Positions 4,144 to 27,627 of a stretch of 64,000 nt of DNA are shown in pieces. The position numbers were made by a program, and so were the translations under genes. Numbering within the stretch: position 1 is the stretch's first letter; the number at the start of each line of letters is the position of its first letter. Origin of the DNA: Candidatus Hydrogenedentota bacterium (GTDB taxonomy: Bacteria; Hydrogenedentota; Hydrogenedentia; Hydrogenedentales; SLHB01). The stretch lies in contig BTVY01000002.1 of the NCBI GenBank assembly GCA_045863335.1, positions 211,758 to 275,757 of the forward strand, written 5' to 3'. A model generated the notes under the pieces. It was not told where the DNA came from. It did no database searches and saw nothing but the letters and a program-made list of their open reading frames with translations.

Positions 4144-5324
4144 GCGCCGACACCCGGTCGATAGCATCGCTTTGGGAAGCACGCGTCCGCCGCGTGGGTG
4201 GAATTGCAGCACGTTTCTTAGCCGGCGTCATCTTCTGTCAGCGCGCAATACTTTCGCTTGCCGTCGTCGGCTGGACGTACCGGTTCATGCAGGGAAGCGC
4301 AGCGCGGTACTGGTATCGCGCGACTGGCGGGCCGTTGAAGTGCGGCTCGTTTTCCGAATTCGCGCAGAGCGATAGCGCAACAAAGTGTCTCGCGACGACG
4401 CCTCGCTTTGTCTTCGCTGAAAATGGTGATGAACTGCCCGCGAGCTTCGGGAGAGTTCGACGCGCCGCCCGGACGCTGACAGGCTCTCTTGTAAAGAACC
4501 TCAAGATCGGTCTGCTCGGTTTTGCTAACACCTCGGTGCTGGTTGCGCCTGCGGAAGTGCTGTGGTACTTCGGCTGGTTCGCGGGATGGCACATCTCCTT
4601 CAACAAGGTCTACGAGCAACACGCAATTGGTCTAACCATCTCGTGGATCGGCATCGCGTGGTTCATCGCGGCCATGTTCTACGTGCCCCTGGCGCAGGCC
4701 CGGCAGGCGGTGACCGGAGACTGGAAACGCTTCTACGACTTTCGTTTGATTCGGACTCTGGTCGCGCGCCACCGACTTGCCTGCTTGATGCTCGCCGCGT
4801 TCTACGCTGTGGGTTCGCTGCCGCTCCTCATATTCAAATTCGCACCCTACTCCCTTGGCGGCATGAGCGCGGCCATGGAGACGATGCCGAATGCCGCGCT
4901 CCTTGCGCGACTCAACCAATACTTTTTCCTGACCACCTTTGTCGCCTTCCCCATCTACGTGGGCATGCGTTTGCTGGCGACACGTATCTACGCGCGCGCC
5001 CTGCTACAGGCCGTCGCGGACGGCGCGGTTGAAATTGATTCGCTCGAAACCTTCGAGCGCGACGTACTAAGACGTTTGGGCGTCACGCAACCTGCCGCTC
5101 GAGCGATGCCAGAACCGATCGTGCGCCGGGTACCGCGCAAGGCGTGGCGCGCGGGACTCGTCACGGCGACGATCGTGCTGTGGTTCGCCGTGGTGGCGCA
5201 GGTCTACGTGAGCGAGTTCTTCGTCTATCGCGGCGCGCGCGGCTGGTTGAATCAGCCCCTGGTGCAATTGCCCTGGTTCCGCTATGTACCGGCGCACCTG
5301 GAGAATCCGGACGGTGCGCTGTAG
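4140..5324 (+). CDS. Multi-pass membrane protein of unknown function
   Basis: ATGA overlap with the upstream gene, about 7 hydrophobic segments, 394 aa. Confidence 0.75.
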   Translation: MSADTRSIASLWEARVRRVGGIAARFLAGVIFCQRAILSLAVVGWTYRFMQGSAARYWYRATGGPLKCGSFSEFAQSDSATKCLATTPRFVFAENGDELPASFGRVRRAARTLTGSLVKNLKIGLLGFANTSVLVAPAEVLWYFGWFAGWHISFNKVYEQHAIGLTISWIGIAWFIAAMFYVPLAQARQAVTGDWKRFYDFRLIRTLVARHRLACLMLAAFYAVGSLPLLIFKFAPYSLGGMSAAMETMPNAALLARLNQYFFLTTFVAFPIYVGMRLLATRIYARALLQAVADGAVEIDSLETFERDVLRRLGVTQPAARAMPEPIVRRVPRKAWRAGLVTATIVLWFAVVAQVYVSEFFVYRGARGWLNQPLVQLPWFRYVPAHLENPDGAL

Positions 5325-11498: not shown

Positions 11499-12284
11499 CT
11501 ACAATCCCAGATCGTCCATCGCCTGTTCTTGACGCTGGGTCTGCTGCGATCCGATATCCCGGGCGCCGCCGCGCGCGCGGCTGCCCGCGGCGCTCGAACC
11601 CGCACTGCTCATGCTATTGAGTTCATTCTGAATGCCGATGCCGGTCATGGTTTCACCCATGAGTCCCCCGCCTCCAACACCCGGCTGTCGCGTGCCGGTT
11701 TGCGCGGTCTGCCCGCCGTAAGGCGCAACCTGATTGGGCGACTGACCCTGGGGTTCGTAGAGCGCGCCGGTCTGCGGGTCGTAAATAAACGGCATCCCGT
11801 TGTTCGCCTTCGGAACTTCTTTCAAATAAGTTGGTGCCAGTTGGTCCAGCGAAGTCGGATAGTATCCCGTCGCCATTCCATACTGATTGATGGCGCCACG
11901 GATTCGCGCCATCTTGTCGGTGTTGGATTCCTGTGAACGTGCCGGCTGCGGCGCAACAGGTCCGTCGAGCAGCACTTTACCAGTGGATGGATCATACCCG
12001 TAGGGGCGACCATCGGGCTGCGTCGGCACCTGGGTGAAGTACTCGGGTACAAGTGCCTGCAATGACGCGGGGTACTCGCCATGTTCCGCGGCGTAGGCCT
12101 GGATTGCGTGATTGATTTCGATGTCCGAGGTCGTTTGCTGGGCGTTTTCCAACTGCCGCTGCAGGGTACCGAGCTGTTCGGCTTGCAGTTCGCTCTGAAT
12201 CGCCGTCGACATCAGCATGTCGAGCATACAACCGGTCGTCATGAGCGGAACGAGGCTCAATACGATGAGTTTGAAGTGTCGCAT
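11499..12284 (-). CDS. Lipoprotein with two tandem GspG/pseudopilin-like globular repeats
   Basis: Lipobox LMTTGC. Repeats AIQAY..GEYPASLQALVPEY..DGRPYGYDPSTG and AINQY..GYYPTSLDQLAPTY..NGMPFIYDPQTG. RBS AGGAGG. Confidence 0.75.
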   Translation of the reverse strand: MRHFKLIVLSLVPLMTTGCMLDMLMSTAIQSELQAEQLGTLQRQLENAQQTTSDIEINHAIQAYAAEHGEYPASLQALVPEYFTQVPTQPDGRPYGYDPSTGKVLLDGPVAPQPARSQESNTDKMARIRGAINQYGMATGYYPTSLDQLAPTYLKEVPKANNGMPFIYDPQTGALYEPQGQSPNQVAPYGGQTAQTGTRQPGVGGGGLMGETMTGIGIQNELNSMSSAGSSAAGSRARGGARDIGSQQTQRQEQAMDDLGL

Positions 12285-12452: not shown

Positions 12453-13838
12453 TTACAGGTTGTAACCCGCTTCTTCGTGCAGACTGATATCGAGACCCTG
12501 GGTCTCCTGCTGTTCACTCACGCGAAGCCCAACCACGACATCCACTATCTTGAGCAGGATGAAGCTGAGCACGCCACAGTAGACGATGGTCACCAGCGCG
12601 CCCTTGACCTGCTGGATGAACTGCGCACCGATGCTGATCTCTTCCCAGCCGCCGAGACTGGTCGAGGCGAAGACACCGGTCAACAGCGCGCCCACAAGGC
12701 CGCCGATACCGTGCACGCCGAATGCGTCCAGGGAGTCGTCATAGCCCAGCGCGCGCTTCAGGGACGTGGCACCGAGGAAACAGATGCCGCCGGACGCGAG
12801 CCCGATGACCAGCGCGCCCATGGGGCCAACGGTGCCAGATGCAGGGGTGATCGCAACCAGGCCGGCAACGGCGCCCGTCACGGTACCAAGGGCGCTGGGT
12901 TTGCCATGTTTGCCCCATTCGATGAACATCCATGCCAGAGCCGCGGCGGCGGTCGCAATCTGCGTCACGAGCATGGCCATACCCGCGGAACCGTTCGCGG
13001 CAACAGCACTGCCGGCATTGAATCCGAACCAGCCGACCCACAGCATCCCCGCCCCGGTGACCGTCATCGTGAGGTTATGCGGGGGCATGGGCGTCGTGGG
13101 ATAACCGCGGCGTTTGCCTACCAGGATGGCGGCGATCAGGGCCGCAACACCCGCATTGATGTGTACGACCGTGCCGCCGGCAAAGTCGAGCACGCCCCAG
13201 AGGTCGCCCATGAGCGAACCGCCGCCGGACCACACCATGTGGCACACGGGCGCGTAGACGAAGGTGAACCATAGCGCGGTGAACAAGAGCACCGCGGAAA
13301 ACTTCATGCGTTCCGCGAACGCGCCCGCGATCAGCGCCGGGGTGATGATTGCGAAGGTCAACTGGAAACACACGAAGACGGACAGGGGGATCGTGCCGGA
13401 CAGCTCGTCCGGGGATACGCCTTTCAGGAAGAGATAGGAGAACCCGCCCACGAAGGATCGCAGATTCAATACCCCCTCCTCCATACCCGTCGTATCAAAT
13501 GCGAGACTGTACCCGTAAATGACCCACAGAATTGTCACCAACGCCGTGATCGCGAAACATTGCATCAGGACGGACAGCACGTTCCGGGTTCGCACCAATC
13601 CACCGTAGAACAACGACAGTCCGGGGATCGTCATGAACAAGACCAATGCCGTAGCCGTCAGCATCCACGCGGTATCGCCCGTGTCCAGTACCGGCGCTTC
13701 CTCCACGACCTCCACGGCCGGCACCGCTTCTTCCTGCGCGACCGAAGTCAACACAGGGACGCACAGGAACGCAAGAAGCAGCGCGATGCGCAGGTATGGT
13801 GTGGCTGCCGCCTCACTTACTCTTCCAAACAAACCCAT
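12453..13838 (-). CDS. amtB: Ammonium transporter
   Basis: GDTAWML, PGLSLFYGGLVR, FQLTFAIITPAL, DFAGGTVVH, WFGFNAGS, DDSLDAFGVHG. RBS GAGGAG before ATG 13838. Confidence 0.96.
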   Translation of the reverse strand: MGLFGRVSEAAATPYLRIALLLAFLCVPVLTSVAQEEAVPAVEVVEEAPVLDTGDTAWMLTATALVLFMTIPGLSLFYGGLVRTRNVLSVLMQCFAITALVTILWVIYGYSLAFDTTGMEEGVLNLRSFVGGFSYLFLKGVSPDELSGTIPLSVFVCFQLTFAIITPALIAGAFAERMKFSAVLLFTALWFTFVYAPVCHMVWSGGGSLMGDLWGVLDFAGGTVVHINAGVAALIAAILVGKRRGYPTTPMPPHNLTMTVTGAGMLWVGWFGFNAGSAVAANGSAGMAMLVTQIATAAAALAWMFIEWGKHGKPSALGTVTGAVAGLVAITPASGTVGPMGALVIGLASGGICFLGATSLKRALGYDDSLDAFGVHGIGGLVGALLTGVFASTSLGGWEEISIGAQFIQQVKGALVTIVYCGVLSFILLKIVDVVVGLRVSEQQETQGLDISLHEEAGYNL

Positions 13839-13945
13839 TACCCGATCTCCTCTTTCGTGCGGTATCGAGCGCTGCCGCGCCCGGAACTCCCTTTCAACCG
13901 GCTCACTCCGTGTTCGATAACACTGGGCCGAGCACCAACCAACCA

Positions 13946-14329
<384 letters not shown>

Positions 14330-14390
14330 CTAGATTACTTACACTAGATTCAGCGCTATCGAAACCCGTGCACGTGTCGATATGGGCAAG

Positions 14391-14407
14391 AGCAAACCGT
14401 ATGCCAA
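14391..14407 (-). promoter_or_regulatory. Sigma54 promoter of glnK-amtB
   Basis: Minus strand TTGGCATACGGTTTGCT, a full match to TGGCAY-N5-TTGCW about 100 nt upstream of glnK. Confidence 0.85.
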
Positions 14408-14806
14408 CTGGATTCCGGCATACATCCCGGCCCGGCAGCGGGAACCCTCCGATCCCCATGTAAGGAACGTTCCTGTAGACGCTTACGACGGTTGAACCGA
14501 TAAATAATACGCCCACGAACTCCGGGAATACCTGATCGACACCCAGGTGACACGCCGAGACAAAACATACATTTTGGTAATTCACACCGCAGAGGTTTCT
14601 ACCATCCGGTATCTTTCCTTGCCATTTGGGACGGCCAAGAAAGGTCCGACTCTGGTTTAGCGGATTTCTGGACCAACCGCGCTGAATCCTCGATATCCGG
14701 GAAAAACTTAACCACTGCTACGGGTGCGAAGCATCCCATTCGTGCGGCATAACCAAGCGACGAAGCGTAGCGATGACCCAGAATACGCAGCGGAATTAGA
14801 AGCGAG

Positions 14807-14835
14807 TTGACACTGATGACTACGATCTGTATACT
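14807..14835 (+). promoter_or_regulatory. Near-consensus sigma70 promoter for the 14911-16948 operon
   Basis: TTGACA (14807-14812), 17 nt, TATACT (14830-14835). Confidence 0.75.
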
Positions 14836-14910
14836 GTTGGCGATCGATAGAGTTAGAACGGATTGCACATCTCACGCAGTTGGTATGGGTCAAGGGGTAC
14901 CGTTGGGTCG

Positions 14911-15516
14911 ATGACAGCCCAGAAACGGGAAAACGCATTGAGCGTCGCGTTGGCGACCCTGTTGGGGTCCAAAGCGCGTGCCGCGATTCTTCGGCTCTTC
15001 CTGGCCGACCCGACTCGGGCCTACTACCAGCGACAGATTGAGGCGGCAACCGGGCTTCCTATCCGGGCGGTCCAACGCGAATTGGAACGTCTCCAGTCAA
15101 TTGAATTCCTCTATCGGCATACGGAAGGGAACCGGACCTACTACCAGGTTGACATGTTGTTCCCCCTGTTTCAGGAACTGCGCGCCCTCGTATTGAAGGC
15201 GGCAAGCCCGCTGGACCGACTCCGGGGAGCCGTGGCGGTCAACCCGAGTGTTTTGATCGCGCTGCTCGACGAGGACGCAAACCAAGTGCTCCTCGTGACC
15301 ACGGGGCCCGAAGCACCGCCGATACCGCCCATGGAACCGTACGCCATTGAAACCATGTCGCGCGAAGCGTTCGCCAGGGAATTGGCGGAGCGCTCCGCGC
15401 GTATTGATAGCCTGCTCACACGGAGCGTGGATTTGCTCGGAAGAAGGGAAGACGTCGTCTGGCGTCGGATCGAAGCCGCAGGCTATTCGATCCAGAAAGG
15501 GAAAGGTGTGGCTTAA
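14911..15516 (+). CDS. Winged-HTH protein with degenerate minimal nucleotidyltransferase (MNT)-like C-domain
   Basis: LLGSKARAAILRLF..YYQRQI..AVQRELERL..GNRTYYQ..PLFQELRALVLK matches the HTH of HTH-MNT fusions. The C-domain lacks GS..DxD. Confidence 0.75.
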   Translation: MTAQKRENALSVALATLLGSKARAAILRLFLADPTRAYYQRQIEAATGLPIRAVQRELERLQSIEFLYRHTEGNRTYYQVDMLFPLFQELRALVLKAASPLDRLRGAVAVNPSVLIALLDEDANQVLLVTTGPEAPPIPPMEPYAIETMSREAFARELAERSARIDSLLTRSVDLLGRREDVVWRRIEAAGYSIQKGKGVA

Positions 15517-15517
15517 C

Positions 15518-16948
15518 ATGCGGACAACCAGCGCAATTCAGCGGTTGTGTGAATCGTGGTGGGAGAAGCTCGCGGATTCCACGCGGGAAGACCAGCACCT
15601 GTACGCGGAGAAATTCCTCGCGCTCCTCGGATGGAACGAGTCCGACGAACTCGAGCCGGCCGCGGTCCCGGGCCATCCCACGACCCTGGCCTATATCATC
15701 CGGTCGGGCGAACAGACGAGCATGGTCGCGTACTTCGTGCTGCCCGGGGTGCTGGAACCGCCCAGCAACGCGATCAAGCGAAGCCTGGACTTCTGCCCCA
15801 TCACCCGCGCCCTCGTCGACATGAACCGCGTCTTCGGCGCGCCCTACGCTTATGTGACCGACTTGTTCCGATCCTACTTGTATGATGCCAAGACCGACGA
15901 ACTGCTGTTGGTGGCCGATACGCCCGCGGCGTTCACGTCCGAGTTTGGGGACGTTCTGCTGCGATCGAACGTGGAAGCGGGCTCGCTGGACGACGTGCGG
16001 CGGCAACCCCGCAGCTATGTGGCGCGGCAATTGCGCGAATGGATTCATCGCTGGACCGAAACCCTGATGAGTGAGTGGCGGGCGCCGGAAGAGGCTGCCT
16101 GGCTCGCCATGGACCGTATGGTAACCCTGCGGTTTCTGGCCGAGCACGACATCCTTCGGAGGCCCGGCGCCTCGCCCAACCCCATCAAACGCCGTCTCAC
16201 CCCGCCGCCCAGCGGGTCGGAGGAAGGCTGCGGTCATGCGTTAACGTCACTATGCAAAGACATATTTGAGCAGTGGGGCGCGGGCCTCTTCGCACCGCAG
16301 CCTCCGGTAGAGGCGATCCTCGCGCAGGACGCGGTTGCGGGTCCGCTCGTCAACGAGTTGGCCCTCCAGTCGCGCGGCAAGTTCAGTCTCGCCACGGTGC
16401 TCGAAAGCTTCAACTACGGCGACGCGGCGGAGAAGGCGCGCGTTCGCATGATTCCCGAGGATAACGAGGAACGGCAGGCGTACCTCGCGCAACAAACCTG
16501 CGCGACCATCGACGAGGCGCGCATTGAACTCGATCTTGCCGATGAAGGTTACCGCGCGATCTTCCGCTGGTTCGATCAGTTGGTCGAACTGTACGCCCGG
16601 CTCGGCGCAGAGTTCGAAGCCGCCACGCAGGCGGAACAGACCGGTGCTTCAGACCTGGACCTATTCGATTGGTCGGAGATCAATGCGAAACGGCCCAGCG
16701 CCTTCAGCGATGGACTCCGCCACGCCATCGAGCAAGGCCTGACGATCTACTGCAGTTCGCCGCGCCAATTCCGCACCGCGCGGTTGATCCTGTACTTGCA
16801 CCTCGCCACGCGCTACGAACACGGCGATGCCCGATTCGAGATATTCCCCACCGTGGAGACCGCGCTTCAACGCCGTCCTCACATGCTCGATTCCGACCGG
16901 CGCCGCATCTTCCAGGGTTCGTCCGAAGACGAGTGGGAAGTGATCTAG
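15518..16948 (+). CDS. Hypothetical protein resembling a degenerate Type IIG restriction-modification scaffold
   Basis: 1 nt after the upstream stop. FLALLGW, YVTDLFRSYLYD, AMDRMVTLRFLAEHDIL and WGAGLF recall Type IIG REase/helical-spacer segments. No ExK, DPACGSG or NPPY motifs. Confidence 0.7.
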   Translation: MRTTSAIQRLCESWWEKLADSTREDQHLYAEKFLALLGWNESDELEPAAVPGHPTTLAYIIRSGEQTSMVAYFVLPGVLEPPSNAIKRSLDFCPITRALVDMNRVFGAPYAYVTDLFRSYLYDAKTDELLLVADTPAAFTSEFGDVLLRSNVEAGSLDDVRRQPRSYVARQLREWIHRWTETLMSEWRAPEEAAWLAMDRMVTLRFLAEHDILRRPGASPNPIKRRLTPPPSGSEEGCGHALTSLCKDIFEQWGAGLFAPQPPVEAILAQDAVAGPLVNELALQSRGKFSLATVLESFNYGDAAEKARVRMIPEDNEERQAYLAQQTCATIDEARIELDLADEGYRAIFRWFDQLVELYARLGAEFEAATQAEQTGASDLDLFDWSEINAKRPSAFSDGLRHAIEQGLTIYCSSPRQFRTARLILYLHLATRYEHGDARFEIFPTVETALQRRPHMLDSDRRRIFQGSSEDEWEVI

Positions 16949-16990
16949 CAGGATACGCACTTACCATAGCGTTAACCTTCCGGCGCTGAC

Positions 16991-17019
16991 TTGACTCAGC
17001 CCTCGTTTACGCATAGCGT
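16991..17019 (+). promoter_or_regulatory. Possible sigma70 promoter for the GH172 gene
   Basis: TTGACT-N17-TAGCGT. Confidence 0.3.
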
Positions 17020-17128
17020 AACGCAGGGGACAGACCGGCGTTTCCCGCCGGTTCCGGGTGCGGCCACGTGTCCAAGGCAGTCTACCCTTCCCCCATGACC
17101 GGCTACAGAGATAAACAGAGGGAGACGT

Positions 17129-18274
17129 ATGACCATGAAACCATTCGGAATCGCATTTCTCGCGTTCGCGTTAATCGCGCCCATCGTTTCGGCGCAAGGT
17201 GCGGGGTTGGACCAGCTTTACCAGCTCAACGACGCACAATCCCGCTCCATTAGCCCGGAGAACTTCACGGGCGAAAAGGGCAAGGGCGGCATGGCGACCC
17301 TGGAAGAGGGCACCGCAGCGAAGGCCGCGCGCGAACTCGGCCAGGGCTGGAAGGTCAACCCGTACGTGCACATCAAGCCGGGTGAAACATTCACGATGGG
17401 CGAGATCGACGGCTCCGGGATCATTCGTCATATCTGGATGACGCCCGTCGGCGATTACCGGCTCATGATCTTTCGCATCTATTGGGACGATGAAGAAGCG
17501 GCCTCGGTTGAAGTGCCCGTGGGCGACTTCTTCGCAGCCGGTTGGGGCATCGGCAACGAGCCGCAGATTGCCTCGCTGGCCGTGTGTGTGAATCCCCGCA
17601 GCGGATTCAACTCGTACTGGAAGATGCCGTTCCGCAAGGGCGCGAAGATCACCATGGAGAACCTGGGCGAGAAACAGGCTACGGTCTACTACCAGATCGA
17701 TTACTCGCTCGAAGACGTGGCGAAAGACACCCCCTACTTCCACGCCCAGTTCCGCCGCACCAATCCGCTCCCGTACAAGGAAGTGTTCACCATCGTCGAT
17801 GGCATCAAGGGCAAGGGCCAATACGTGGGCACCTACCTCGCCCACGGCGCAAACAGCCCGGGCTGGTGGGGCGAAGGCGAAATCAAGTTCTTCATCGACG
17901 GTGACGGCGAGTTCCCCACCATCTGCGGCACCGGCGAGGAAGATTACTTCTGCGGCTCCTACGGCTATGAGGAACAAGAAGAAAACGGCAAATACACCTA
18001 CACCAGTTTCAGCAGCCCCTACACGGGCTTCTACCACGTGCCCTTCGAGGGCGAGCAACGCCGCTTCGGCCAGTACCGCTGGCACATCACCGATCCCGTC
18101 CGATTCGATCAGGATCTGAGGATCACGATCCAGGCCTTGGGTTGGCAGAGCGAAGGCCGGTACCTGCCCTTGCAGGACGACCTGGCCGCGGTCTCCTACT
18201 GGTACCAGATGGAGCCGCACGCGCCCTTCCCCGCCCTGCCGGCGAAAGAAGCGCTGGTGATTACGAACGAGTGA
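17129..18274 (+). CDS. DUF2961 / GH172 glycoside hydrolase, secreted
   Basis: Signal peptide, SRSISPENFTGEKGKGG, HIWMT, VPVGDFF, WWGEGEIKF, GTGEEDYF, YRWHITDP. Confidence 0.92.
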   Translation: MTMKPFGIAFLAFALIAPIVSAQGAGLDQLYQLNDAQSRSISPENFTGEKGKGGMATLEEGTAAKAARELGQGWKVNPYVHIKPGETFTMGEIDGSGIIRHIWMTPVGDYRLMIFRIYWDDEEAASVEVPVGDFFAAGWGIGNEPQIASLAVCVNPRSGFNSYWKMPFRKGAKITMENLGEKQATVYYQIDYSLEDVAKDTPYFHAQFRRTNPLPYKEVFTIVDGIKGKGQYVGTYLAHGANSPGWWGEGEIKFFIDGDGEFPTICGTGEEDYFCGSYGYEEQEENGKYTYTSFSSPYTGFYHVPFEGEQRRFGQYRWHITDPVRFDQDLRITIQALGWQSEGRYLPLQDDLAAVSYWYQMEPHAPFPALPAKEALVITNE

Positions 18275-26386: not shown

Positions 26387-27241
26387 CTAGAAATTCCGAA
26401 CCAGCGCTTCAACCACCGTGCCACGGCGATCCGCGCGGCTGTTCACCAATCGCGTTGCGTTGACCGATTCCACCTTGAACCCGCGGTACAAATTCTGAAT
26501 GAACTTTGTCATCGAATTCGAAAGAATGAACTTCACGCCCTTCGCGTCCAGGGTACGTGCAACGTCTGCCAGACGTTGCTGCTCCGCGCGCCCAAACCCG
26601 CCACGGTCGTAGGCGGTGAACGATGCGGTCTTCGACACGGGATCGTAGGGCGGATCGAAGTACACGAGGTCCCCCGCTTTCGCGCGGCCCACGACCATCT
26701 CGAACGACTGGACGGAAATGTCGGCACGCTGAAGCGCTTCCGACGTGGCGCGGAGATTTACCTCGTCGCAGATGCGGGGATTTTTGTATCGCCCGAAGGG
26801 GACGTTGAAGATGCCTCGGCTGTTCTCGCGGAACAACCCGTTGTAGCAGGTCTTGTTCAGGTAGATGATGCGAGCCGCGCGTTCAAAGAGGTCCTCGGGC
26901 ACCGCATCGCGCAGGGCGTAGTAATATTCTTCGGAGTGTTTTTCGCGATGGCGCTGCAAATGGTCGATCACCCGCTCGACATCTTGTTTCACGCCAAGGT
27001 ACGCGGCGATCAGCCGCTCGTTGTTGTCGCTGAGATACGCGCGCTTGGTATTCCGGCGCAACCGATTAGTTCGTACGAGTTCGAAGAACAACGCGCCACC
27101 GCCAACGAAGGGCTCGTGGTAACGGCCGAAATCGCCCGCTCTTTCGACTTGGGCGATGAGGGGGCCCAAGAGTTGCCCCTTCCCTCCCACCCACTTCAGA
27201 AATGGACGCGGGACCTCCAGCTTCCGGCGGGTGTAACTCAT
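26387..27241 (-). CDS. dam: DNA adenine methyltransferase, Dam/D12 family
   Basis: PFLKWVGGK, EPFVGGGALF, YLNKTCYNGLFRENS.G.FNVPFG, YFDPPY. ATGA overlap with the upstream nuclease gene. Confidence 0.92.
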   Translation of the reverse strand: MSYTRRKLEVPRPFLKWVGGKGQLLGPLIAQVERAGDFGRYHEPFVGGGALFFELVRTNRLRRNTKRAYLSDNNERLIAAYLGVKQDVERVIDHLQRHREKHSEEYYYALRDAVPEDLFERAARIIYLNKTCYNGLFRENSRGIFNVPFGRYKNPRICDEVNLRATSEALQRADISVQSFEMVVGRAKAGDLVYFDPPYDPVSKTASFTAYDRGGFGRAEQQRLADVARTLDAKGVKFILSNSMTKFIQNLYRGFKVESVNATRLVNSRADRRGTVVEALVRNF

Positions 27242-27627
27242 AGTCCGAAGTACAACTCCAACCAGTCCCGGAGATCGATCAGATTTACGGCCATTCCAGT
27301 GGACAGCAGGTACGACTCCATGTTGCTCGAGAATCCCCGGCCCGAATACACGACGATTCCGCGAATGGGCCACGCGCGGATATCTTCCAAGGTTGCGGGG
27401 ATCTTCTCTTCCGCACTCCCTTGGCCGTCTTGAAACTTGCACTCGACGCCCAGGCTCACGCGGGTTTCGGGATGCTTGAGCACGACGTCGATCCGCCGCT
27501 TCGCGCCCCAGATGCGCCGCCCGACCGGGACCTCCAATTCAACGACGAGACCCAAGGTTGCGCCCAAGGAGGCGACTTCCGTTTGTAGTTCCTTGCCGGA
27601 AGCGACGGCCTGCTGTTTACCTGGCAT
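27238..27627 (-). CDS. Small PD-(D/E)XK nuclease-superfamily protein (putative restriction/nicking endonuclease)
   Basis: GKELQTEV helix, RRIDVV, VECKFQ (ExK), GSAEEKIP, YSGRGF. Translationally coupled to dam. Confidence 0.78.
   Translation of the reverse strand: MPGKQQAVASGKELQTEVASLGATLGLVVELEVPVGRRIWGAKRRIDVVLKHPETRVSLGVECKFQDGQGSAEEKIPATLEDIRAWPIRGIVVYSGRGFSSNMESYLLSTGMAVNLIDLRDWLELYFGL

Follow-up and report, generated by a model that had tools for sequence, protein, structure and literature searches.

Two kinds of defence module come closest to the locus described here. Type IIG restriction-modification (R-M) enzymes (Eco57I-like enzymes, MmeI (IIL), DrdV and BpuSI) and PglX have nuclease, helical and N-terminal methyltransferase (MTase) domains in a common order and with a common fold. 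Toxin-antitoxin (TA) operons of the HepT/MntA type, with PADLOC PDC-M05 among them, couple a winged helix-turn-helix (wHTH) protein carrying a minimal nucleotidyltransferase (MNT) domain to a HEPN gene. Such defence genes are usually patchy and fast-changing. PDC-M05 is a nucleotidyltransferase (NTase) plus HEPN module (PMC12988326), and for an MNT antitoxin repression of its own promoter has been described (PMC4621449). Here we describe a two-gene operon in a 64,000-nt stretch of a Candidatus Hydrogenedentota genome (contig BTVY01000002.1, positions 211,758 to 275,757; "the window"), in which a wHTH-MNT relic (gene 1) precedes the front part of a Type IIG-like protein (gene 2) (Table 1).

Both genes stem from defence families and have lost their catalytic motifs, gene 2 is truncated, and the two are linked and held by purifying selection. 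A first, sequence-only reading of the window had seen in them two inactivated defence families kept together, which it took to suggest an exapted module; that the pair is retained is borne out by a ratio of nonsynonymous to synonymous substitution rates (dN/dS) of ~0.1. No description of the module, or of clamp motifs in R-M enzymes, was found in the literature searched, whose coverage was partial. We regard it as a real, conserved, exapted and apparently undescribed operon with a testable regulator, for which we infer a function. Our preferred reading, held with moderate confidence, is that the operon represses itself, belongs to the housekeeping genes and supplies a domesticated factor without catalytic activity that is tied to replication or to deoxynucleoside triphosphate (dNTP) status.

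Table 1. Positions of the operon, its predicted control sites and the neighbouring genes discussed in the text (window coordinates unless a locus is named).
Feature	Position	Strand	Remark
Sigma70-type promoter TTGACA-N17-TATACT	14807..14835	+	score 11/12; conserved in relatives
Operator O1, TGACTAC-GATCT-GTATACT	14817..14835	.	covers promoter spacer and -10; predicted gene-1 site
Second operator position	14911..14931	.	on start codon; degenerate and below threshold in window genome, clear in many relatives
Gene 1	14911..15516	+	201 aa; ArsR-like winged helix and degenerate minimal nucleotidyltransferase; probable autorepressor
Gene 2	15518..16948	+	476 aa; truncated Type IIG-like pseudoenzyme
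Degenerate SAM-binding motif I, DLADEGYRAI	16532..16561	+	gene 2; aligned to DPACGSGSF of active Type IIG relatives
D-L-D-L-F-x-W loop	16652..16672	+	gene 2, residues 379-385; aligned to the QLDLF-type clamp-binding-like motif of distant relatives
glnK-amtB	12453..14287	-	divergent from the operon; context only, neighbour limited to one clade
glnK	13946-14287	-	
amtB	12453-13946	-	
cinA N-terminal-domain gene	L070:9430-10218, L076:1488-2261, L079:1179-1964, also L066, L075		-1 to +14 nt from gene 2 where measured

Ancestry and motif loss of the two genes

Gene 2 matches an Eco57I-like Type IIG enzyme over the N-terminal ~45% of the latter. Alignment of its family with a profile of 15 long Eco57I-like relatives (three partial ones were left out) using hhalign gave P 98.4 and E 5.9e-15, with residues 26-437 matched to 29-492 at ~19% identity. 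The predicted structure (mean predicted local distance difference test, pLDDT, 90.9) divides into a dead PD-(D/E)xK-fold (~16-161), a helical connector (~163-290) and the N-terminal half of an N6-MTase fold (~300-460). The model is closest to MmeI (Z 13.5, root-mean-square deviation (rmsd) 4.7, 269 aligned), followed by PglX (Z 11.3), of which it covers residues 1-579 only, and HsdM subunits, while its residues 16-161 resemble HsdR-N (Z 8.8, rmsd 3.9). In a Foldseek search of the PDB, R-M enzymes fill the top 10 with DrdV, BpuSI and PglX ranking first, none of them at E <= 0.001; BFVD returned a single phage adenine MTase (E 6e-4), and ESM Atlas features point to MmeI_N/MmeI_hel. Pfam, NCBIfam and PADLOC gave nothing above cut-off for gene 2, and PDB sequence searches gave no useful match. 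A profile search of 1.84 billion representatives yielded 118 matches, namely the gene-2 family itself, proteins of 429-476 aa without Pfam match above cut-off (52 of the 118 were scanned) and Eco57I-like enzymes, the latter matched over query residues ~1-294 only.

The catalytic residues are missing throughout the family. The nuclease E-A-K of the Type IIG enzymes aligns to F-V-L/M, and [DE]xK is found within residues 50-90 in 1/120 family members compared to ExK in 15/15 Type IIG relatives. Motif I, the S-adenosylmethionine (SAM)-binding site, is degenerate in a register read from motif context, as the hhalign alignment is gappy there; the GVD of motif II has become IYC, and an NPPY-type motif occurs in 0/120 members versus 14/15 Type IIG enzymes. 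The chain stops ~100 residues before NPPY, near Type IIG residue ~500, and the target recognition domain (TRD) is absent. Judged from these alignments, gene 2 is a truncated pseudoenzyme cut off before motif IV and the TRD and not a member of Type IIG: it shares the domain order and fold, but D...ExK, GSGS and the acid of motif II are missing, as are NPPY and the TRD. It is also acidic (pI 4.95, net charge -22; family median -13), slowly evolving and 476 aa long, in contrast to the 950-1220 aa of Type IIG enzymes.

Gene 1 combines a winged helix (residues ~1-98; CzrA, Z 13.2 over 3-98) with a C-terminal domain (~99-201) that resembles an NTase (3c18, Z 8.7, rmsd 3.0, 92 residues aligned over 99-192), the latter being a middling match. 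PADLOC PDC-M05A matches gene 1 with E 5e-19, and its Atlas neighbours are wHTH-NTases. There was no match above cut-off in Pfam or NCBIfam, and none at E <= 0.001 for the model in Foldseek on the PDB. The comparison was extended to four plasmid wHTH-MNT genes, taken from 22 records, to which gene 1 aligns with P 98.5 over residues 20-122 (hhalign). The MNT motif GS..DxD is present in 4/4 of these plasmid relatives and in 0/119 gene-1 family members, with ~10 residues spanning the GS loop and DxD deleted in gene 1. Near-invariant parts of the protein are the recognition helix, the wing and a new C-terminal segment (D174, R179, W184). A downstream start, which would make the initial 'MT' an artefact of the operator, was rejected: codon 1 is ATG, GTG or TTG in 44/55 sequences and no alternative position is conserved.

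The four plasmids (L081-L084: NC_022358.1, NZ_CP032520.1, NZ_CP066352.1, JX194160.1) carry the wHTH-MNT gene followed by a HEPN-like (RNxAEY) gene without Pfam match. Our locus has in common with these operons the wHTH-MNT architecture and the coupled two-gene layout. It differs in the deleted GS..DxD loop, the new C-terminal segment and the operator sequence, and in being chromosomal with one copy per assembly, without a detectable HEPN gene, instead of plasmid-borne. The architectures first proposed for the two proteins, wHTH plus MNT for gene 1 and the Type IIG segment order for gene 2, thus stand, the second for the N-terminal part only, and the loss of both sets of catalytic motifs turns out to be family-wide. 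The operon thus lacks defining features of both parent families. A complex prediction with two gene-1 copies and gene 2 residues 1-468 scored 0.00 in both runs, with controls not folded, and was used neither for nor against binding.

Conservation and neighbourhood of the gene pair

A scan of GTDB species genomes confirmed 104 gene-2 relatives; the 80 best of these, from as many different assemblies, were retained. As the loci were retrieved via gene-2 peptides, pseudogenes are under-counted and genomes with gene 1 only are invisible, which tells against our reading. At E <= 0.001, 236 homologues of gene 2 and 373 of gene 1 were found, which assign the window to Candidatus Hydrogenedentota; the best 120 of each bear names no better than 'hypothetical' or ArsR/wHTH regulator, and the best 120 of the 236 gene-2 homologues measure 456-516 aa, nearly all being full-length. 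The 80 loci are labelled Hydrogenedent- (56), Nitrospira-type (17), 'uncultured bacterium' (5), FCB (1) and Bathyarchaeia (1). Because the rows with labels other than Hydrogenedentota interleave with the rest on the tree, we take these labels to be wrong; L001 is 99% identical to the window. The locus labelled Bathyarchaeia (L019, DATKVG010000106.1) carries the operon and is near-identical on the tree to the Hydrogenedentota locus L020, and is likely mis-binned or mislabelled.

Gene 1 lies directly 5' of gene 2 in 69/80 loci, the two ORFs being between -4 and +4 nt apart in each of the 69 pairs measured (1 nt in the window). Among the other 11, three end at or near the gene 2 start and eight are truly without a nearby gene 1; of 77 testable loci, these eight carry an intact gene 2 with no gene 1 beside it and are spread over five positions of a quick tree. 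For pairs at least 80% identical, the median dN/dS values of the two genes were 0.113 (29 pairs, range 0.044-0.168) and 0.096 (35 pairs, 0.016-0.186); the medians over all pairs, 0.37 and 0.30, are inflated by saturation. None of the 79 gene-2 and 58 gene-1 segments aligned contains an internal stop. The pair is under purifying selection and not decaying. Plain decay of two pseudogenes is ruled out by these data and has a negligible probability: the one locus that resembles it, L021 (2518-4053, gene 2 in three frame pieces), comes from a genome 99% identical to the window and from a contig whose name gives a coverage of 3.9, which makes an assembly error likely, and the low dN/dS, the lack of stops and the nearly uniform length among the 120 listed homologues all speak against it.

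The operon has the same GC content as the remainder of the window, and its downstream neighbours vary freely across loci. PADLOC (1e-8) matched 4 of 135 flanking ORFs, including one Type II MTase; these ORFs are the nearest on each side, limited to 450 aa, and some are probably shadow frames. HEPN models were absent among these matches, and neither a HEPN-like gene (4-sequence profile) nor the C-terminal half of a Type IIG enzyme was found among 4475 ORFs of the 80 loci and the window slice. Gene 2 has no match in plasmid or phage collections. The operon is thus located outside defence islands, and gene 2 has no mobile copies in these collections. A D12-class N6-adenine DNA MTase in the window (Dam-like, Pfam E 6e-59; 26390-27442, minus strand) is ~10 kb away and flanked by signalling genes. 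The sequence-only reading was therefore right that neither a HEPN toxin nor an active MTase is adjacent.

This neighbourhood bears on two other explanations for gene 2. Type IIG enzymes such as DrdV oligomerise through their nuclease-fold and helical domains, both of which gene 2 has kept, and it could be a dead subunit that joins host Type IIG or Type I oligomers and damps self-cleavage of under-methylated new DNA. Replication-linked control would fit such a modulator, but we find it distinctly unlikely, given one Type II MTase among the 135 flanking ORFs, no Type IIG C-terminal half in the 4475, only ~19% identity to active Type IIG profiles, and a conserved chromosomal gene being probably a poor partner for R-M systems with their fast turnover. 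The other explanation is a decoy or sensor titrating phage anti-restriction proteins of the Ocr/ArdA type. Here, the defence origin of both genes, the resemblance to Ocr-bound PglX and HsdM, and the strong, repressible promoter would suit; however, gene 2 matches PglX without its Ocr-binding C-terminal part, and the isolated N-terminal domain of PglX does not bind Ocr or DNA (PMC11341690). Moreover, gene 2 is itself acidic, as are the mimics that it would need to bind, evolves slowly and shows neither defence-island context nor mobile copies. We rate the decoy as improbable, and the earlier suggestion of it is not supported in view of the missing Ocr-binding part, the acidity and the 4/135 PADLOC matches. 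A sensor complex, likewise suggested before, is weakened, if obligate, by the intact gene 2 without adjacent gene 1 at five places on the tree.

Promoter, operator and NrdR-like boxes

In the window, the promoter is the sole site scored between 13.5 and 18.5 kb, where shuffles yield 1.5 sites of at least 9/12; taken by itself, this single match is weak. Across the upstream regions of 62 loci and of the window (63 in all), the best sigma70 match reaches at least 10/12 in 49, compared to 37/630 shuffles, and because of this conservation upstream of the relatives we take the promoter as real. That the operon is expressed, we infer from promoter conservation only. The layout described initially, a TTGACA-N17-TATACT promoter before two intact ORFs 1 nt apart and divergent from glnK-amtB, was confirmed. 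Antisense ORFs over gene 2 (e.g. 15416-16237) were dismissed as shadows, being long in just 17 loci, and Rfam gave a sub-threshold chance match only within 14000-17400.

An unbiased count of spaced palindromes in the 63 upstream regions placed GACTA-N7-TAGTC (17) and TGACT-N9-AGTCA (15) on top, whereas random segments gave at most 3; the family consensus reads TGACTAC-N5-GTAGTCA. A position weight matrix (PWM), trained on these 63 regions themselves, matches 61 of them. At a score of at least 13, 94 of 95 sites in the 80 loci are no more than ~310 nt from where the operon starts, and shuffles contain none; outside the operon, 885 kb of sequence hold a single operator-like site of this strength. 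In the whole window of 64 kb, the matrix scores 11 or more only once, at 14816 (score 18). The first operator copy lies over the spacer and -10 element or just upstream, the second over the start codon, where 41 sites were found in relatives. The operator is present in 57/61 loci with gene 1 versus 1/8 without it (450-nt windows). In the four plasmid wHTH-MNT/HEPN-like operons, two CCC-N5-GGG-type repeats, recognized by eye, occur near the promoter and the start and look like operators. Both kinds of operon thus have a sigma70 promoter with an N5-centred palindrome in its spacer and another at the start.

Because the operator tracks the presence of gene 1 and the layout resembles that of the plasmid operons, gene 1 is probably an autorepressor, which is the simplest reading of the co-variation. 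In our model, gene 1 very probably binds TGACTAC-N5-GTAGTCA over the -10 element and the start codon and keeps the near-consensus promoter repressed. The dead MNT domain of gene 1 would act as a dimer or signal module, and a nucleotide signal would be a speculative addition. The co-varying operator at the promoter also supports the DNA-binding regulator proposed from the sequence alone. The main operator is not simply an NrdR box, as it has an odd 19-bp symmetry and the PWM scores -2.7 at the nrdR promoter. The arrangement recalls the controller (C) proteins of R-M systems, with a small DNA-binding gene before an R-M-derived gene and operators over its own promoter. C proteins carry a Cro-type HTH and control an active nuclease; unlike these, gene 1 is a wHTH-MNT relic that would control a pseudoenzyme.

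Twin operators and translational coupling would equally suit a TA module. SocB is a clamp-binding, replication-blocking toxin, and gene 2, which occupies the toxin slot of the ancestral operon, could act in a similar manner with gene 1 as its antitoxin-repressor. MNT antitoxins do repress their own promoters (PMC4621449). Nevertheless, we consider a TA module very improbable: gene 2 stays intact without adjacent gene 1 in 8/77 testable loci (although gene 1 could lie elsewhere there), the chemistry of the MNT domain has been lost, and a single copy in each assembly without mobile matches does not look like a TA module.

Alternatively, the operon could be under nitrogen control together with glnK-amtB, or the operator could be read by a global regulator such as LexA. 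We see only a faint chance for either. The divergent glnK/amtB genes accompany the operon in 19/80 loci (15/51 of those with at least 2.5 kb upstream), but all of these belong to one 36-row clade, and L042 keeps glnK-amtB after losing gene 1 and the operator; a functional tie to these genes, as first supposed, is therefore not supported. With an operator scan covering ~0.9 Mb of flanks plus the window, the single off-operon site of at least 13 argues against a global regulator. On the far side of amtB lies a gene (11499-12284, minus strand) for a 261-aa protein without Pfam match, which has, as read by eye, a lipoprotein-like N-terminus and two pilin/GspG-like repeats; its homologues are found near the operon in 11 loci, in some of them without glnK-amtB.

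NrdR is an ATP/dATP-sensing repressor of ribonucleotide reductases (RNRs). Its consensus is acaCwAtATaTwGtg (PMC4009431), and its boxes come in pairs with a 15-16-bp spacer (PMC12051234). Pairs with one box of at least 12/16 and another of at least 9, 30-33 bp apart, were found in 5/8 promoters lacking gene 1, in 3/63 gene-1 promoters and in 1/386 other upstream regions, and this last pair precedes nrdR (TIGR00244), thereby serving as an unplanned positive control. Single boxes of at least 13/16 occur in 5/8 loci without gene 1, from three lineages, versus 2/61 with it. In L042 the TTGACA-17-TATACT promoter is kept, the operator is lost and NrdR-like box 1 overlaps the -10 element; L045, in addition to these 5/8 loci, has a pair farther upstream, at -434/-403. 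The resemblance to the NrdR regulon lies in acaCwAtATaTwGtg-like boxes 31-32 bp apart near the promoter of gene-1-less loci; unlike in that regulon, the target gene is not an RNR, and the window has the gene-1 operator in place of boxes.

Several points weigh against NrdR control. The published NrdR regular expression detects a pair in 1/8 gene-1-less loci, off-phase spacings also yield pairs, and the threshold for the weak box is permissive. Fisher P values for these counts take no account of relatedness. L016 and L049 have no strong box, the window promoter itself has no pair (best single box 11/16), and four of the box-bearing loci (L066, L069, L070, L075) form one clade. The gene-1 operator itself bears a partial likeness to an NrdR box (score of at least 12/16 in 11/63 loci), so that the boxes of the L066 clade could derive by drift from operator sites and be read by a gene 1 that has moved elsewhere. 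According to a preprint (10.1101/2025.03.28.645925), most NrdR boxes called from the motif only are probably false, although paired boxes were specific to RNR operons in two species. The NrdR evidence, consisting of motifs, is thus weaker than that for the operator.

Boxes were also seen beside a retained gene 1, at -135 and -94 (L053), -30 and +1 (L072) and -168, -124 and -82 (L078, three boxes 42-44 bp apart) from the gene 1 start, where dual control is possible. The nrdR gene of the control locus (L044:3636-4190, minus strand) has its tandem pair at its own start (4189-4237, 33 bp apart), which suggests that nrdR is autoregulated in Hydrogenedentota. Such autoregulation is frequent (PMC9110341), although it never occurs in Proteobacteria (PMC5343134).

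The clamp-like loop and a candidate role for gene 2

Because lineages without gene 1 appear to have placed gene 2 under NrdR, we look for its role in DNA replication or dNTP homeostasis. A second hint comes from the D-L-D-L-F-x-W loop of gene 2 (D119, L120, F109 and W120 of 120 sequences). The distant proteins of 429-476 aa align with the gene-2 family over their full length (P 100), and among the 33 aligned (P0273, without the motif, and fragments were left out) Q-x-[DSEAN]-phi-[FL] falls on one column in 21, with 36 matches overall versus 8.5 expected by shuffling; Gln occupies position 1 in 24/33. QL[S/D]LF is the clamp consensus, with positions 1, 4 and 5 mattering most (10.64898/2026.05.27.728225). 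The likeness to beta-clamp partners, Q-x-D-phi-F/L at one position, is therefore a feature of the distant relatives. DMF occurs in the same loop in 5/15 active Type IIG relatives. As an observation in its own right, the profile search uncovered truncated Type IIG pseudoenzymes of 429-476 aa with a QLDLF-type motif (P0284, P0288, P0291, P0293 and ~30 similar ones), and members of this wider truncated family are ~14-33% identical to one another's first member.

In Hydrogenedentota, the loop reads [DE]-[MLI]-D-L-F-x-W and is nearly invariant, but Gln is missing. This counts against a clamp site, since the five commonest residues at position 1 are D62, E41, A7, G5 and S3 (n=120), none of them Gln, and with D or E in 103/120 the family departs from the canonical Q-phi-[SD]-L-F; an invariant W two residues on is a further difference from clamp partners. 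Moreover, the loop is modelled partly as helix (pLDDT ~83) and may be structural. Among 766 neighbour ORFs, canonical clamp motifs gave one unrelated match, which is uninformative on the change from Q to D. The DLDLF loop may have weakened as a clamp site or have been turned to a different contact.

The invariant residues of gene 2 could also mark a new catalytic or ligand-binding site, e.g. for a nucleotide. There are 29 invariant columns in 120 sequences, many of them charged (D91, D115, R118, E296, N299, E305, K306, R310, D339, Q417, R419), NrdR-type control would suit a protein of nucleotide metabolism, and a cinA N-terminal-domain gene follows gene 2 in five loci. We still think a new site unlikely, as the 33 distant relatives keep one invariant and six near-invariant columns, with most of the residues not conserved, several invariant residues match structural positions of Type IIG enzymes, and the Rossmann fold is only half present. 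The cinA N-terminal-domain gene stands alone and is seen only in the gene-1-less clade.

Our preferred reading of the operon as self-repressing and serving replication or dNTP status can be outlined as follows. Homology shows that a wHTH-MNT/HEPN-type operon kept its regulator and promoter layout while its HEPN gene and the active site of the MNT domain disappeared, and that it now carries an Eco57I-like Type IIG enzyme reduced to its front half and unable to cut or methylate. Gene 2 may well be the conserved cargo, an acidic non-catalytic adaptor making protein contacts in DNA replication or dNTP homeostasis, a role to which we give roughly even weight. Upon release of the promoter, it might dock on the beta sliding clamp via the DLDLF loop and act at forks; this step is speculative and doubtful for the present family, more credible for the distant relatives. 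In its boldest form, an R-M enzyme would have been reduced to a clamp-docking pseudoenzyme serving replication in several uncultured lineages, controlled in Hydrogenedentota by a new class of repressor, made from a dead antitoxin and so like NrdR in reporting nucleotide status that NrdR replaced it at least three times. This full version appears rather unlikely to us.

Taken together, the operator, the NrdR-like boxes of the gene-1-less loci and the clamp-like motif, none of which the sequence-only reading had recorded, point to housekeeping rather than defence. Two disabled defence genes in one operon across a deep, almost unstudied lineage represent a clear case of exaptation from defence to housekeeping, and the locus yields two unannotated protein families, a predicted regulator-operator pair and, with gene 2, a candidate target of paired NrdR boxes outside the RNRs. 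Should the clamp link prove true, the replisome would gain a new partner in gene 2, with the suggestion that Type IIG methylases, too, may travel on the clamp.

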